Source: Albugo candida (lineage: Eukaryota). Taken from it: a stretch of DNA of 64,000 bases. The translations under genes were made by a program, and so were the position numbers. Position 1 is the stretch's first letter, and the number at the start of each line of letters is the position of its first letter. This document shows, piece after piece, positions 26,257 through 60,960 of this stretch. The stretch covers positions 62,001 through 126,000 of the forward strand of contig JBDOQK010000071.1 of NCBI GenBank assembly GCA_040437565.1. Direction: 5' to 3'. Under the pieces are notes generated by a model, which made no database searches, was not told the origin of the DNA, and saw only the letters and a program-made list of their open reading frames with translations.

Positions 26257-27595
26257 CTACTTGCGCATGCAAAGACTCCCGATGATTGCGGCGGCTATAA
26301 CGGTGCCCAACCCGATTGAATAGACGCTTCTACTCCATTCCATAATCCTGTTGACTCGTTCTTTGACAGGAAGCCTCCGTGGAAGTCCATTCTTCTCATC
26401 AATCAGGCTTTCTATCTCGTCCAGCTTTTGAGGACCAGAGCCCACACACGAGATGTAAAATCGACTAATCCCATTTCTGAAGCTCGCCTTTCGCATCATA
26501 TCACCGAGCTTACGCACTTTGGGTTGTAATGCCGTTGAATCCATGCGGAAATTGAGACTTGAAGAAGCTTGGAAAGGAATCTTTGTATGACCTGAGTATA
26601 CCAATTGGAGTAATTCCACGAGTTCCTCAAGATACTCGCGTGTGGTATACACGACCGCATTTGGTCCAGCGTCGAAAGTATACGCAGCGCGAAGTCGACC
26701 ATCCTCTGAGATATTATTGTATGAGTGGATAAGGGCAATTATATGCTGAGAGGTCGCGTTCATATAAAAGATCGGAGGTTGGGTATCGAGACATATCGCG
26801 TGAAACTGATTACTGTCTTGCATCATGATTTTTCCGAATTGATTGAAATCTTTTTTCAAAAACGCACTTTCCATCATGCTCATCCTTTCGGGCACAACTA
26901 ATGAATTGCATCAGATTTGTATGTTTCATTCATACGTTCGACTTACTTTGCGATGTTCGAAACGGAAGTAACGCACTGGTTCGTTTAGACATTTGCATTC
27001 CAAACGTACTGCTTGTTTCCTTTTCTCTCTCATTGACCACACAAATAACCGCACACAGCTCGGGCCAAGACGACGCATCGGCAACAGGAACAGCTTTCGA
27101 AGATTCAGAGTTTGTCCCTTTGTCCCACCGTACCAAACCTCCAAATAGACTGCGACACGCACTGCCAGAACCTTGTCTAGCGATGATACTTAATTTGTCG
27201 AGGTGTACACGAAGGTCCAGTAATTGGGCTAACGTGTACACTAAAGACGCGTATCCCGCAGCAGAGGAAGCCAATCCGGCTCCAGTAGGAAACGAGTTTT
27301 CTGTAACGATGTGGAAATGCATTTTATGCCACTTTGGATCGTCTGAGAGAGCTTTGACCAGCTCAATGACCGCAATGGCACGGGACGGTAGCTGGGATAG
27401 CTCCTGACCATTCAGCCACATTCGTGTATCAGAGAAACTCTCATCGGCTGCAATGGTGGTTTTTGCGTATAATAGTGTAGGATCGAGGGTCACACTAATA
27501 GAGCTATTGAGAGGAGTGTTGAGCACGGGGTTTTCTTTCCCCCAATACTTAATTACAGCGATGTTTGTGGGTGAAGCACATGTGACTACTTTCAT
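26257..27595 (-). CDS. MVD: Diphosphomevalonate decarboxylase, 2 exons (intron 26898..26946)
   Basis: Motifs PTNIAVIKYWGK, NSSISVTL, NSFPTGAGLASSAAG, ARQGSGSACRS, DSNQFHA and AYTFDAGPNAV. Confidence 0.96.
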
Positions 27596-28642: not shown

Positions 28643-29055
28643 TTTGCGTTATGAGGAGGAAAGTGTTGCTGTGCATAATGTGACATCTGGCGTGAAAAGA
28701 TCGTGACGCGACATGCGAAACGACCAGTATTATAAGACGCATGAAACTCGTTCGCGTGTGTTCGTTCGTGTTCTCGAAGTGGGGGCCTCAAAGGAGGGGT
28801 CGGTGGTGTTTCGATATATGAATCGTGGAGCTACGGTTTCGTGAATTGAGCTGAATTAACGGCGAAGAAAGCGATTGAGTCAGGAAATTCAAAGATTGGG
28901 TGTAAGCAAACGTGATCGATAGATTTGTATATAGCGTTTTGTCTGGTGGGTAGAAGCAATTCGATTGGTGAAAATACGCTCCTGTGTGACCAAACTCGGT
29001 GTATTGGGCATGTAATCCTTGTTAAGTACGCAGTACACTATATGAATGCTGCACC

Positions 29056-29914
29056 TTACTTGTCGAGAACAATTCCTTCGTACTTTGTTTGAAACCAATT
29101 GATGGCATCGTCTTTACGAAGACGGTGAGGTGCACCAATACGTGACTGTTGAATCTTTCGATGTGACACTCGTGCACCAGGTCGCGAAAGCACCACGAAG
29201 AAATCCATTCCGTAAATACCAGTCGATGGATCGTACTTAATACCGAGATCTATGTGCTCCTGAATACCGAACCCAAAGTTTCCAGTATCGGAGAAATTTT
29301 TCCGCTTCAACTCGTATTCCTTGACTTTCAGACCTCGATCTAAAATTTCAGATGCCATTTCGCCCCGGACGGTTACATGACATGAAATTTTTTCATTCCT
29401 TCGAATTCCAAAGGAGCGGACCGTGTATCGTGCTGCGACAGTACACAAAAGTATTAGTCAGAATGGATCACAGCAAGCTAATAATAAATAGGGTCATAGG
29501 GTAACAGCGTCGGCCTTTTTGAAGCCTACGCGATCGGGGATCCTTGAACCCGGAAAGGTAGCGTTTATTTAGACCACATCTCCCTAAAGCAGATGGATGC
29601 TTCAGAGAGCGATTGTACATCGCGTGGTCTCGGGTAAGTAGCCCGTTAAGGCACTTTCTCGCCGGGTTCCCACCGTATGCTTTTGGGACCTGGAACCCAT
29701 CGGCTTACCCTTGGAATAGACCGGTTTCTGTCCGGTCAATTGCTCCAAAACTCGAGCGGCACGTGTGAGCTTATCGCCCGATTCACCCACGCAACAGTTG
29801 ATCACTAACTTGTCGACTTTGATTTCTCGCATTGCATTGTTGCTCTTTTTGTCTCCGGCCTGAACCACACACATTAATGCGGTATGAAATGACGAAGGTT
29901 GCGGAACGTACCAT
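29056..29914 (-). CDS. RPL11: 60S ribosomal protein L11 (uL5), 3 exons (introns 29860..29911 and 29433..29708)
   Basis: [95 protein letters not shown]. Confidence 0.97.
29433..29708 (-). ncRNA. Candidate structured RNA element filling RPL11 intron 2
   Basis: 276-nt intron (most others here are ~50-65 nt) with several nested inverted repeats, e.g. AGACCAC/GTGGTCT, GGGTTCC/GGAACCC, GCGAT/ATCGC and GCGTAGGC/GGCCGACGC. Confidence 0.5.
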
Positions 29915-30549
29915 TTTTGTGTGCTACTACGCGTCAAGGATTCCCAAAATGGTTTGTTTGTTTGTTTTGGTTGGTGGATAGCGAGGGGCTTTTATTAGGA
30001 AATATGGAGTAGATTACGGAAGGTGTTCCCAACGTGGAAGAAAGCATTTTGTGCGTAAAAAACGAGCATTTATTGAAGTTAAATGAGAAGAACTGAAAAG
30101 CCGGGATTAACGATGAGGAAATGACTATTCTCGCGTATCTATTTCAGTTGCTTTTGGGCAACTTTGTGAACAGCAACTCTGTAGTGATACATTCTGTCAA
30201 CATCAATGTGTCTGAAGATAATGAATCGCGATCGTGAAGTAAATAATGTATTCACATTTAATTATAAATGTGTCGATACGAGCCTTGTACAAACGTGCTA
30301 TCATTTTGATCTTACTTTACTTAGATTCGCATACACACCATACAATACACAAAATCCAAAAACCGGTAAAGTTTGCAACTGAGCAAGTTATTTGAAATCA
30401 CTCGGATTGGCTAGCGTAGAAAACAATCTCTTGTATTGGCTATTAATGACAAACAATTCATTGACACGTGTTAGTTTGCTGCTCCTTTGCTCAATAAACG
30501 CTCTGTGCCGTTCATTATCCGAATTCTGTCTCAATCGTGACATTGGACA

Positions 30550-33500
30550 ATGAAACGTACTACTACTCATAGTCGGGGATGGCTCACCTCACCCACTCGT
30601 GCCATCTCCGCCTTTCTTTTCCTACTTCATAGTTGCTCTCAACAATGTGTGGTACACGCCAAAGTAGCCGGCCTTGATTTCGGCGGCGAGTACTTCAAAG
30701 TCGCGCTTGTTAAACCAGGCACACCCTTTGAAATCGTGACCAATGTCCACAGTAAGCGAAAGACGGAAACAATGGTTGCATTCGATGGCGAAGAACGTAT
30801 CTATGGAGCTGATGCCGATACGATTGGTGTCCGTCGTCCTCACACCGGATACGCTCAAATTCGCCGTTTTCTAGGATCGAGTTTGGATCATCCTGGAGTT
30901 CTGTCCCTAGTTACACAAGAATACTTTCCGTATACCTTAAAATTGAATGAGAAACGGGGGACGATTCATTTAGAGCATGAAAATGAGCAATTGTATCACG
31001 CCGAAGAAGTTGTGGCTATGGTCTTTTCACATGTGCGCCAAATCACGGATGTGTTCGCAGAGAGCGACGTCAAAGACTACGTCATTACCGTGCCCGATTA
31101 CTACACTCAGGCGCAACGACAAGCAGTATTGGATGCTGCTGAAATCTCTGGTTTGCGTGTGCTCTCTTTAATCAATGAGAATACTGCGGCTGCCCTACAA
31201 TTGTGTATCCACACCAGTATGGAACCCAACGAACGCAAACGTGTGATGTTTTATAATCTAGGGTCAACCTCATTACAAGTAAGCATCGCGGAATTTTACA
31301 GTTATGTGGTTCCAGTGGGCTCATCGTCGAATAAAACGGTAATTGGATTTTCAGTCCTTTCGAAGGCGTGGGATGAACATCTCGGAAGCAGCAAGATTGA
31401 CCTTCGTCTAGCCGAATATCTCGCACGTGTCTTCAATGAACAAGTTCTTCATAATAAACAAGATGTCCGAACACTTCCCAAAGTTATGGCCAAATTGCGT
31501 GCACAAGCCAAAAAAACAAAAATCGTACTTAGTGCGAATGAAGAGATTCCAGTCGTGATGCAATCGTTACTTGATGACTACGATTTGAGAACGGTTGTGA
31601 CTCGTACTTTATTGGAAGAAATCAGTAAAGATCTCTTAGATCAAGTTCTCGGTCCAGTAGAGGAAGCACTCCGAAAAGCAAACTTAACACGTGGCGATAT
31701 CCAAGACGTCGAACTTATCGGTGGTGGTGTGCGCATGCCTAAAGTACAGAGTCTGCTAAAAGAGTTCTTCAATGTACAAGAGCTTGGAGCGCATCTGAAT
31801 GGAGACGAAGCTATGGCACTTGGTGCTGCATTCCGCGCCGCCAACTTGAGCAATTCCTTCCGAGTGCGACCAATTCATATGACTGATATCTCAACTTACG
31901 CTATTGGCGCTCGTTTGGCTGATATACATCTTGAAGATGAAAAAGAGTCGACTTGGGCCAAGCACGCGCCGCTGTTTACTACTGCACACCGATTGGGCGC
32001 ACGTAAAGCCGTGAGCTTGACACATGCGCGCGATATGACCTGTACATTCCATTATAACGAGCCGTCGAGCTTGCCGAAGGGAGTTTCTACTCACATTGGA
32101 AAGTTCTCAATCACTGGAATTAAGGACTTTTACACGCAACATTTGGAGAAAAATTTAGGTGAACCGAAGGTTACGCTAACGTTTTCATTGGATTCGAGCG
32201 GAATTGTGTCAATTATAAAGGCGGAAGCTACTTTAGAGGAGGAGTACGAGGTGGAAGTCGAAGTTCCCGTCGAGAACAAGGAAAAGACGCAAAGCGCAAC
32301 TACAGATGCTGACGCCGACGCTGTAAAAGAAAAAATCGATTCTACTGAAGAAAAGACTGGAGACGCTGACAAAACCGAGGAAAAGGATGCAAACGTTGAA
32401 GAAAAAGTTAAAAAGGAGGAAGAAAAAGTGGAAGAAAAAGTGGAGAAAGTGATGCAAAAGCGAAAGCGAACACTCCGTTCGGCGCTTTCGGTCAAGCTTG
32501 TCGAAGAAAGATTGGGTGAAAATAACGCTATTATGAGTATTCTACCAATGAGCTCCTCGGACAAAAGTGACTCGATCAAACTATTGCGCGAAATGGAAGC
32601 CGCTGATAATAAACGCAAAGCCAATTTGGATGCAAAAAATCGTCTTGAAGCTTTTGTCTACAGTGCGCGTGATTCATTGGAAAGTGACCAAGACGCCATT
32701 AGTCAAGTTACGCTTCCCGAGCAAGTAAATGCGATTTTGATCAAATTGGAAGCCGCTGAGGAATGGCTGTACGAAGACGGCGATAAAGCGGAGGCTTCCG
32801 AGTATCAAGCCAAGCTTTCAGAGATCGAGACGGAATTGGATGCGATCTTATTCCGANNNNNNNNNNNNNNNNNNNNNNNNNNNNNNNNNNNNNNNNNNNN
32901 NNNNNNNNNNNNNNNNNNNNNNNNNNNNNNNNNNNNNNNNNNNNNNNNNNNNNNNNAAAAATCGTCTTGAAGCTTTTGTCTACAGTGCGCGTGATTCATT
33001 GGAAAGTGACCAAGACGCCATTAGTCAAGTTACGCTTCCCGAGCAAGTAAATGCGATTTTGATCAAATTGGAAGCCGCTGAGGAATGGCTGTACGAAGAC
33101 GGCGATAAAGCGGAGGCTTCCGAGTATCAAGCCAAGCTTTCAGAGATCGAGACGGAATTGGATGCGATCTTATTCCGAGTATCGGAAAAAACCGATTTTC
33201 CAAGCATTATTGAGGATGCAAAAAAACTTGCGCTCAGTATGAAAGCCAAACTGAGTGATTGGGCGGAAACGCGACCGTGGATTACCGAACAAGAGCAAAG
33301 TGACGCTCGTGCGCGTGTGGAAGAATTGGAGACGTATCTGGAGGAAGCCGTGACAAAGCAAAAGGATCATCCCCCACATGAACCGCCTCTTGTCACGTCA
33401 GCCAATGTAAAGAAGCAAATGCAGCAAGTCAAACGGCTTATTGATCGACTTGCAAAGAAACCAAAGCCAAAGCCTGTGAAGGATGTCAATGCGACCGAGA

Positions 33501-48988: not shown

Positions 48989-50642
48989 GGCGACGTCGCA
49001 CAAATTCTAGGAATCAAATCAGAGTCTAATGCGGCACTAGGTTCGTTCCGCCGTGCTGTTGCTTACATAGACCAAATTCCCTTTTCTTGTAGAAAAAGTT
49101 GCCACGCCCGTTAGTGGCAACAAGCCTCCATTGAAAAAGCTGACCGGAATGCAACGTGAGGTTCTCGGACTCATGGAAAGCAGCTACCGCGGCCATCATG
49201 CTTTCTATCCGAGTATTCCAAAGCAAAGCCTTCAGCAGAAGTGGAAAGCCCATAAGTCAATCCCTGCAATCAAGTGGAAGAAACTATCCTTCCAAAATCC
49301 TGCACGCAAAGACTTGCCGGGCGAAAATTGCCCGGAATCATCTAATGAGCGTGGTCCACTTATCTTACAACATTGGGTAAAGGCACACAATTCCGGGATG
49401 GAGTACACATTTGCCCGATTTAATGTAACTTGTGTGACCACCACTTACACCAACGAGGAGTATGTCAATTGTATCGAAAAGTACACTGATCCACTGATGA
49501 AGCCATGGACAAGATCACAAACTGATCTCTTATTTCAATTGTGTCAGCAGTACGACTTGCGCTGGTTTGTCATCGCAGACCGATGGTTTACATACACACA
49601 ACATGATGATGTTGCACCAAGCACTTGGACTTTAGAGGATCTTAAATATCGATATTATGAACTTACTCGAGTGCTTGCAACTTATCGCGAACAACAAAAT
49701 ATCGCCGACAAAGCGATCAAATTGGATCCTCAGTGCAATGAAGCGGCTTTGAGCGAGTGTCCGAAGAACGGATCAGCCCCTACCGCTGCGATTCCGTCCG
49801 AAGAATCTCGACCCGTCCAGGGCAGCGTGTCGTTATCAATCGATCCTCAATTCTCGTTCAATCTTTTGTATGAGAAACAGCGCAAGAGCCAATTGGAAAG
49901 AGCATTCCGGCGCTCTATTGAAGAAGAAAAAGAGATCCAAGCACTCAATGAAGAATTGCGTGATCTTGAACAGCAACTCAAGAAAACAGCTGGCAAAATG
50001 GACGCAAAAAAGAAAAAGGTATCGTATCGGACTTCTTTCTTCTTCCAAACGCAATCGCACACTTTTTCTATGATAGGAATTGGCCGTCGCCAGCTTGAGT
50101 GCGCGTGAATTCCCAGTCGGCGTTTTTCTGCGAAGCATTTGTGTGACAAATTGTCCAATCAAAGGAAAGATGCTCAAAAAAATGCAAGCGGTCCTAAGAG
50201 AGCTCGGTATTCCGGCCCGCCCAATGCCGACGCAGAATGTTTGTGAGATGTTTGATACACTTCGTGAAGATATCGTGGGGCTTTTATCACTCCGAAAGCA
50301 TCTTGAAATGAAGCAAAAAGAACTCTCAACGCTCCAAAACCGGTATCGTAGCCTTACCGGCGAAACGTATGAACCTGTAGGAATCCATCCGTTAAAGCAA
50401 GCAGGTATGTTGATCGTTCATTTTTTGGTACAAGCGCTTATATTTCTTGAACAGATCTGGAAACTACCATATTACAGGGTGGATTGGGCGAAGTGGAAGC
50501 GTCACAAGTGTCGGTGAACGATACGCCAACGACATTCGCTGGGAAAGCAATGAAACAAGCTGGAAAAACGGCGCGGAATGCTTCTAAACGGCGAAATTCA
50601 GCAGCGATTGGAAGCGGATTTAAGCGGAACAAGAAAGCGTGA
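48989..50642 (+). CDS. DMAP1: DMAP1/Swc4 (NuA4/SWR1 subunit), multi-exon; start codon probably lies in gap 48889..48988
   Basis: (M)GDVAQILG, GMQREVLGL, FQNPARKD, LQHWVK, FARFN, SANT WTRSQTDLLFQLCQQYDLRWFVIADR, EDLKYRYY and PMPTQNVC. Confidence 0.88.
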
Positions 50643-60419: not shown

Positions 60420-60960
60420 TTGGAATGAGACTCGAGCAACCTTTCAAGATATAGCACTTGGCAAGATGCGATTGGTTGAAAGCGCATGATAAGAGGCATT
60501 GGTTGGATAATTTTCGACGTACGAGAGATTCATTTGATTTGTAGAAGATGGTACATACTATAAAGGAAGTGATTAAATAATTTNNNNNNNNNNNNNNNNN
60601 NNNNNNNNNNNNNNNNNNNNNNNNNNNNNNNNNNNNNNNNNNNNNNNNNNNNNNNNNNNNNNNNNNNNNNNNNNNNNNNNNNNATTTTTGAAATGAACAG
60701 GTCCCTCCCAAAGGGAGGATCAAGAAATTGGATCAAGCCGCCATGATAGGGGTCAAGTCCACGGTAATCTTTAGTAAAAGGCGAAAGATTAATTCGTGTT
60801 GAATTTAACCCGACGGAGATACTCTAATCTCCGTACTTTGGCAAACTACATAGTGGGTTACATCCCACACGGACAAAGCGCACTCACCGTGAGCACGCCC
60901 CACACAGTACCACACATCTACCGCCCTGTAATAGACAATAAACAATGCTCCCCTTTCATA

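Follow-up and report, generated by a model that had tools for sequence, protein, structure and literature searches.

The window (the whole 64,000-nt stretch of Albugo candida DNA analysed here) carries on its minus strand the gene for ribosomal protein uL5 (RPL11), with a coding sequence of 176 codons; the coordinates of its features are collected in Table 1. The translated exon 3 is 90% identical to the named 60S L11/uL5 protein of Peronospora, 88% to that of Phytophthora, 87% to that of Pythium and 84% to that of Aphanomyces, and the protein matches carry the Pfam domains PF00281 and PF00673. Divergent from uL5, on the plus strand, runs an 809-codon Hsp70-family ORF (30541–32970), which reaches 34 X residues at window positions of about 32860–32970, where the N bases of an assembly gap lie.

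Table 1. Features of the uL5/RPL11 gene and of its second intron (window coordinates; nt, position counted from the first nucleotide of intron 2)
Feature	Position	Strand	Description and basis
uL5/RPL11 gene	29056–29936	−	Spliced contig taken as RNA-derived; sequence; homologues named L11/uL5
Start codon ATG	29914–29912	−	
Intron 1	29860–29911	−	52 nt; directly 3′ of the ATG
Exon 2	29709–29859	−	
Intron 2	29433–29708	−	276 nt, GT..AG, phase 1; sequence and contig joints
5′ leader, nt 1–29	29680–29708	−	Holds the 5′ splice site GUAAGC
Predicted closed multibranch core domain, nt 30–214	29495–29679	−	Fold, RNALfold, GC profile
Putative conserved block 1, nt 30–77	29632–29679	−	Similarity to P0124
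Predicted three-way junction, nt 79–138	29571–29630	−	Closing helix AGACCAC/GUGGUCU and two hairpins
Putative conserved block 2, nt 126–185	29524–29583	−	Collinear with P0124, same frame
Predicted last hairpin, nt 177–201	29508–29532	−	GCGUAGGCUU-CAAAA-AGGCCGACGC; minimum free energy (MFE) fold
3′ tail, nt 215–276	29433–29494	−	AU-rich, ordinary; 3′ splice site
Exon 3	29056–29432	−	Stop TAA at 29058–29056

To define the boundaries of intron 2 we used contigs of two runs, X1 and X5, whose spliced contigs were presumed to be RNA-derived. Contigs of both runs join 29432 directly to 29709, skipping 276 nt bounded by CT..AC on the plus strand and hence by GT..AG on the gene strand, so that intron 2 is exactly 29433–29708, precisely where the original prediction had placed it. 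The X5 contig, with blocks at 28988–29432, 29709–29858 and 29911–29936, also joins across the 52-nt intron 1, while the X1 contigs cover neither intron 1 nor the gene flanks. The intron is inserted between a Lys codon and Ala-Arg-Tyr-Thr, in phase 1, and at 276 versus 52 nt it is 5.3 times as long as intron 1; the original prediction had put the excess over normal length at roughly fivefold. Typical intron lengths in one oomycete are given as 50–100 nt in PMC5010894.

The X1 contigs, which are incapable of revealing a separate intron 2 product, do contain an unspliced form: one contig of 335 nt runs from 30 nt of exon 2 through the whole of intron 2 into 29 nt of exon 3. Its depth is 29.5 against 1,986 for the spliced intron 2 joint in the same run, and the unspliced RNA therefore stands at about 1.5% of the spliced level. 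Reading through from exon 2 meets an in-frame UGA at intron nt 105–107 (29604–29602), 35 codons into the intron. Two further observations concern the exons. At 29199–29278, within conserved exon 3, short high-depth X1 and X5 contigs carry 10–11 differences over 80 nt, and these divergent contigs are presumably uL5 mRNA of another organism present in the same samples. The end of exon 2 (29708–29717, UUCCAAGGG) is 90% complementary over 10 nt to nt 19–28 of exon 3 (29405–29414, CCUUUGGAA), and the two pair in the fold once exon flanks are added; since both stretches are coding, this complementarity may be due to chance.

The predicted fold divides intron 2 into a leader, a core and a tail. The MFE fold of the whole intron has 82 base pairs, of which 10 are G-U, and within it nt 30–214 are predicted to form a closed multibranch domain of 64 base pairs (7 G-U) with a GC content of 0.53, in line with the multibranch RNA that had been proposed for this intron. 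GC content runs at 0.50–0.59 in the folded part versus 0.34–0.47 in the flanks. The leader and the tail, which holds a branch-site-like CUGACUAAU at 29461–29453, add up to 91 nt, near the length of a normal intron, and the core loops out the other 185 nt; the layout looks like a module borne by a normal short intron. In block 1 of the core lie the purine-rich GGCGAGAAAG, GCCUUAA as a junction strand, and the CGGG-CUACUUA-CCCG hairpin. The three-way junction that follows bears GCGAT-GTACA-ATCGC and TCTCTGAAGC..GCTTTAGGGA as its hairpin arms, and block 2 takes in the 3′ strands of two helices, that of the junction and the long-range one, together with the start of the last hairpin.

Most of the individual stems named in the original prediction recur in this fold. 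The long-range helix GAACCCGG/CCGGGUUC, which joins nt 40–47 to nt 156–163, the CGGG..CCCG stem at nt 64–78 and all three arms of the junction, including the AGACCAC/GTGGTCT helix with its two named hairpins, are present in the MFE fold with pair probabilities of 0.66–1.0. The GCGTAGGCTT..AGGCCGACGC stem is found both in the sequence and in the MFE fold. The GAAAG/CTTTC stem does pair, but in a shifted register. For the first hairpin, GGGTTCC..GGAACCC, the sequence does contain the 7-bp inverted repeat, yet the equilibrium probability of the hairpin is near 0 because GGAACCC pairs downstream instead: the partner of GGAACCCGG is the downstream CCGGGTTC, with a probability of 0.77–1.0. The GGGUUCC..GGAACCC hairpin, at nt 11–45, could nevertheless be the first to form during transcription.

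Next, we compared the stability of the intron with that of shuffled sequences. On the sense strand, 200 dinucleotide shuffles of intron 2 give −74.7 ± 4.6 kcal/mol; the intron itself folds at −91.2 (z −3.59) and is equalled by none of them, as had been anticipated for a structured element; on the antisense strand z is −1.24, with 24 of 200 shuffles as good, and the antisense mirror of the same structure is weaker by 9.7 kcal/mol. For sub-regions, whose bounds were picked after the fold was known and which were each compared with 300 shuffles, z reaches −5.67 for the core (nt 30–214, 0/300 shuffles as good), −6.02 for nt 36–165, −5.42 for the three-way junction (nt 79–138, 0/300) and −3.02 for the last hairpin region (nt 175–203). 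Neither end of the intron shows anything similar, nt 1–50 having no special stability (z −0.68) and nt 206–276 being unstructured (z +0.24). The excess stability of intron 2 is confined entirely to nt 30–214.

The rest of the window provides a second yardstick. Among 2,338 GC-corrected folds of 200 nt (1,169 window positions on both strands), the top two places go to the windows lying over the core, whose residual z-scores are −2.86 and −2.85, and the next locus stands at −2.79. An RNALfold z-score scan of both strands (128 kb; span 200, structures at z ≤ −3) returns the core as a 186-nt hit at 29494–29679 with z −5.37, second among 365 hits and first among those longer than 100 nt, while the best antisense score over the core is −3.87. 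In the same scan the number of window loci is 4 at z ≤ −5, nine at −4.5 and 26 at −4, so that a score of −5 by itself is not rare. The core fold is thus top-tier, strand-biased and unusually complex, and a score of such size is not unique in the genome. The other loci at z ≤ −5 are 20114–20180, 27171–27268 on the plus strand and 49227–49384. Two of these three are symmetric palindromes: the loci at 20114 and 49238 score on both strands and are accordingly palindromic hairpins. The third contains an 81-nt plus-strand hairpin (27180–27260) situated 2 kb from the uL5 gene.

We also examined whether the core corresponds to a known class of RNA. A search with the Rfam 15 covariance models (4,227 families), among them those for snoRNAs, snRNAs, 5S rRNA, RNase P/MRP, riboswitches and ribozymes, gave no match at E ≤ 10, either for 28900–30100 or for intron 2 alone; the same library finds a full-length U5 spliceosomal snRNA elsewhere in the window (60703–60818, minus strand, RF00020, 85.7 bits). 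ARAGORN found no tRNA-like gene. The C box (RUGAUGA) is missing from both strands of intron 2 even when one mismatch is allowed; CUGA, the D box, occurs at nt 104 and nt 248, and no C/D candidate could be formed in the absence of a C box. The sense strand contains a single ACA, at nt 93 inside a hairpin loop, and no terminal one. An H-like AAAUAA is present at nt 139, beyond which there are two small hairpins without a pseudouridylation pocket, the 3′ side of the candidate pocket measuring 3 nt. A box C/D snoRNA is rejected on the missing C box, and an H/ACA snoRNA on the missing terminal ACA and pocket. The scans uphold the earlier remark that the intron has no clean box C and no terminal ACA, and the proposal of an undescribed element stands in the sense that intron 2 matches no Rfam family and has neither C/D nor H/ACA boxes.

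These results bear on the possibility that intron 2 hosts a stable non-coding RNA, a non-canonical snoRNA-like or orphan species that would be released after splicing and act in trans, its paired ends resisting trimming. Ribosomal-protein introns are classic hosts of small RNAs, and the core is GC-rich relative to its flanks, pairs its own ends with each other at a distance from both splice sites, and contains blocks that appear conserved (see below). Many Phytophthora ribosomal-protein genes carry 5′ introns, and about half have guide RNAs predicted by SnoGPS, according to PMC4696810. With intron-hosted C/D and H/ACA snoRNAs, including those predicted in Phytophthora infestans (PMC4696810), the core shares a ribosomal-protein host, an internal, GC-rich and self-closed module and a snoRNA-like size, but it differs from them in having no C box, terminal ACA, pocket or Rfam match. 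This counts against a hosted RNA, as does the absence of a tRNA-like gene. The known stabilisation of intron-derived RNAs requires such boxes. We consider a hosted RNA a possible but rather doubtful explanation and rank it second.

A different possibility is that the core is a functionless relic, either of an insertion such as a decayed SINE, MITE or introner-like element or of neutral expansion in an old intron, with a structure that reflects chance or origin and is shared by descent. Introner-like elements are described as longer than regular introns and as stable in their predicted structures (PMC3609843), folds at z ≤ −5 arise at four loci per 64 kb, and no function-specific motif was found in the core. 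The resemblance of intron 2 to introner-like elements and transposon-derived introns (PMC3609843; PMC11282704) lies in that same combination of greater length and stable predicted structure. It ends at copy number and age. In a blastn search of the 64-kb window intron 2 finds only itself, as does a covariance model of the core built from the single self-aligned sequence, and no copy of the core occurs in 95 fetched loci comprising 297,504 bases (80 metagenome loci by blastn and nhmmer, 92 loci by the covariance model). A dispersed repeat, which would have spoken against the original prediction, was accordingly not seen in the window or in the fetched loci. DNA contigs of 10.7 and 60 kb from two runs traverse intron 2 unbroken, with a single base difference (29595) that falls within a hairpin loop.

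The site of the intron is also old, because an intron occupies the same site in the same phase in 10 of 80 distant eukaryotic uL5 loci from metagenomes (70 are without it); other oomycetes use the site as well, and a recently gained intron position is thereby ruled out. Nine of the ten introns at this site are 34–38 nt long; the tenth runs to 281 nt and has an AT-rich, unrelated sequence. Several of the fetched records that are assigned to bacteria or bacterial MAGs, including Microbacterium, Pararhizobium, Rickettsiales and an Alphaproteobacteria MAG, contain a eukaryote-type uL5 gene 67–77% identical to the query, which is likely to reflect eukaryotic contamination of those assemblies. Together with the ancient, shared site and the lack of other copies in the window and the 95 loci, the unbroken DNA contigs and the nature of the fold, which is no simple palindrome and is weaker in antisense, argue against a relic, as does the apparent retention of the blocks next to a saturated leader that is described below. 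We regard a relic as unlikely and place it third.

We next asked whether the core is shared with other oomycetes. Scans of metagenome, genome and viral contigs yielded no oomycete DNA and no uL5 with more than 79% identity in the matched segment (full-length, at most 77%), and conservation was read from translated gene-caller ORFs of relatives. In three of these proteins (P0001 from Peronospora destructor, P0002 and P0003) 38, 40 and 30 intron-derived codons, respectively, precede Ala-Arg-Tyr-Thr, and the corresponding introns are therefore at least 90–120 nt long; the extensions resemble neither any intron frame of the window nor each other. Between Lys and Ala-Arg-Tyr, a deposited uL5 model of Phytophthora cactorum includes 13 additional residues (DYGVLTCTCVLFT), whose resemblance to a translated branch-site and polypyrimidine sequence suggests a mis-set intron 2 acceptor.

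Nine ORFs from outside the window continue past exon 2, which in all of them is of oomycete type, into the intron. The longest reach is that of P0124, whose oomycete source has an exon 2 of the Phytophthora/Pythium type; this ORF extends 86 codons (258 nt) into the orthologous intron and is abundant in GC-type codons. Seven codons, ALTGYLP, are identical in P0124 and in the read-through frame of the window, at an offset of one codon. In the window they read GCC UUA ACG GGC UAC UUA CCC (intron nt 57–77) and coincide with the hairpin CGGG-CUACUUA-CCCG. Block 1 as a whole matches P0124 by BLASTP with 8 of 16 residues identical (E 3e-4), a score that none of 5,000 shuffles reached. Block 2 follows collinearly in the form G.V..N.T.FPG and then RVG (G.V..N.T.FPG......RVG), displaced first by two codons and then by one. 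The local alignment score with P0124, 47, is reached by 0.08% of 5,000 shuffles and by none of 3,690 control frames translated from elsewhere in the window, two of which reach 45. Taken alone, block 2 gives P 0.088 in the unbanded comparison, a score of 27 with P 0.009 when banded to within three codons of the anchor diagonal, and no match by BLASTP. The original prediction had looked to orthologous introns for conservation, and the collinear blocks provide indirect evidence of it at the level of translated ORFs, although the second of them is weak when taken alone. Searches with the intron part of P0124 returned only P0124 itself, and a representative search with P0124 returned only exon 2 matches and low-complexity plant and algal tails.

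The sequence around the blocks behaves differently. Over the 17 codons from the splice site to block 1, only Gly-Lys, which corresponds to GUAAG, is common to the window and P0124, and in the relatives the 5′ leader is not conserved beyond GUAAG; because the leader cannot be aligned, neutral sites are saturated. A Pro-stop terminates five of the nine ORFs (P0123 and P0130, with identical intron parts, P0127, P0128 and P0203), and the end of P0128, GEK...P-stop, parallels GEKVP-stop in the other frame of the window, which is GGCGAGAAAGUGCCUUAA. These ends would fit a shared CCNUAA placed just before block 1 (CCUUAA in the window). Since three stops fall between the blocks in the window frame, and since in P0123/P0130, P0127 and P0128 the blocks lie beyond the stops, the constraint is not on protein. 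Judging from one long ORF (P0124) and short fragments, a wide span of oomycetes probably descends from an ancestor whose intron 2 was long and already bore a core homologous to that of the window. The core domain is probably conserved at the RNA level, and we infer that conservation acts on RNA function. The blocks could instead be signals at the level of DNA, for instance a site for a transcription factor within the intron or an enhancer of a highly expressed gene, with the RNA fold incidental: they are short, and Phytophthora ribosomal-protein genes have common promoter motifs (PMC4696810). The very stable and strand-biased fold that spans both blocks makes this highly improbable.

We favour the view that the core is a cis-acting splicing or feedback element of the uL5 pre-mRNA, to which we assign a probability of roughly 0.35 and which we rank ahead of a hosted RNA and of a relic. 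Under this proposal, intron 2 would be an old, ordinary short intron bearing a discrete RNA domain of ~185 nt that folds independently, being closed by a long-range helix and made up otherwise of a small hairpin, a tight three-way junction and a hairpin at the end. At least one distant oomycete appears to have retained this domain. It would act in cis to set or regulate the efficiency of intron 2 removal. RNA that remained unspliced could not make uL5, given the stop 35 codons into the intron, and since a retained intron 2 brings in this stop, a factor that stabilised a splicing-incompetent fold would lower uL5 output, in the manner of the feedback loops of other ribosomal-protein genes. Both the cis function and the feedback on uL5 production are what we infer from these features.

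Autoregulatory structures are found in the pre-mRNAs of ribosomal-protein genes such as yeast RPL30, RPS14B, RPL22B and RPS9, and conserved intronic elements of this kind occur in nematodes and humans. The uL5 gene of A. candida has in common with them a stable structure in an intron of its own pre-mRNA, an unspliced form that is non-productive owing to the early UGA, and apparent conservation across species. It differs from them in that intron 2 shows no resemblance to a uL5 rRNA site in the 5S comparisons described below, and that pairing to the splice site does not exceed chance. The 5′ splice site does pair with nt 231–236 at a probability of 0.9 in the intron-only fold; the pairing alters when exon flanks are included, and complementarity does not exceed that of shuffles. 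Specifically, there are 8 sites complementary to the 5′ splice site versus a shuffle mean of 7.3 (P 0.5), and the best duplex has −13.7 kcal/mol versus −12.5 in shuffles (P 0.26). Sequestration of the 5′ splice site by the U1-like CUUACCC of block 1 is likewise not above chance when judged by duplex energy.

A further role in splicing is known from the long structured introns of yeast, in which the branch site is drawn close to the 5′ splice site by pairing within the intron. As in those introns, the core loops out its 185 nt and leaves only the leader and the tail. The predicted fold, however, leaves a path of 24 steps between the 5′ splice site and the branch site versus a median of 20 for random interiors (P 0.69), and since this is no better than shuffled interiors, path shortening leaves both the excess stability and the conserved blocks unaccounted for.

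uL5 is the protein that joins the 5S RNP to the large ribosomal subunit, and the original prediction had raised the idea that the element senses uL5 or the 5S RNP. The analysis gave no support to either link: the Rfam 5S model has no match in the intron, and the two fetched 5S genes, which are bacterial and come from the MAG behind one of the misfiled uL5 records (L086), have no similarity to intron 2 (P 0.89). In its boldest form the cis-acting reading would make the core an oomycete-wide intronic RNA to which free uL5, alone or in an unassembled 5S RNP, binds and thereby holds intron 2 unspliceable, perhaps by setting the U1-like CUACUUACCC hairpin against the 5′ splice site, such that surplus uL5 would shut off its own mRNA. 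Among eukaryotes such an element would be without precedent as a feedback riboregulator of uL5, and we consider it quite improbable in this full form. To our knowledge, neither autoregulation of uL5 nor a eukaryotic regulatory RNA for uL5 has been described. Literature searches agree as far as they go: at the level of titles and abstracts, the matches listed include no structured uL5/RPL11 intron in oomycetes, and among the matches listed for RPL11, intron and autoregulation there is no uL5 autoregulation.

We know of almost no annotated structured non-coding RNAs in oomycete genomes beyond the universal ones. The lack of a match to any known family, combined with the apparent sharing of the core with a distant oomycete, points to an undescribed regulatory or hosted RNA. 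Should the core prove neutral, it would show that folds with z of about −5 arise several times per 64 kb in this genome, a useful calibration for fold scans; were it a hosted RNA, a new class of RNAs derived from introns and devoid of snoRNA boxes could be defined. If the domain is conserved, a discrete and easily deleted module of 185 nt in a single-copy essential gene would offer a clean entry point, and such a module could reveal how oomycetes balance their supply of ribosomal proteins.
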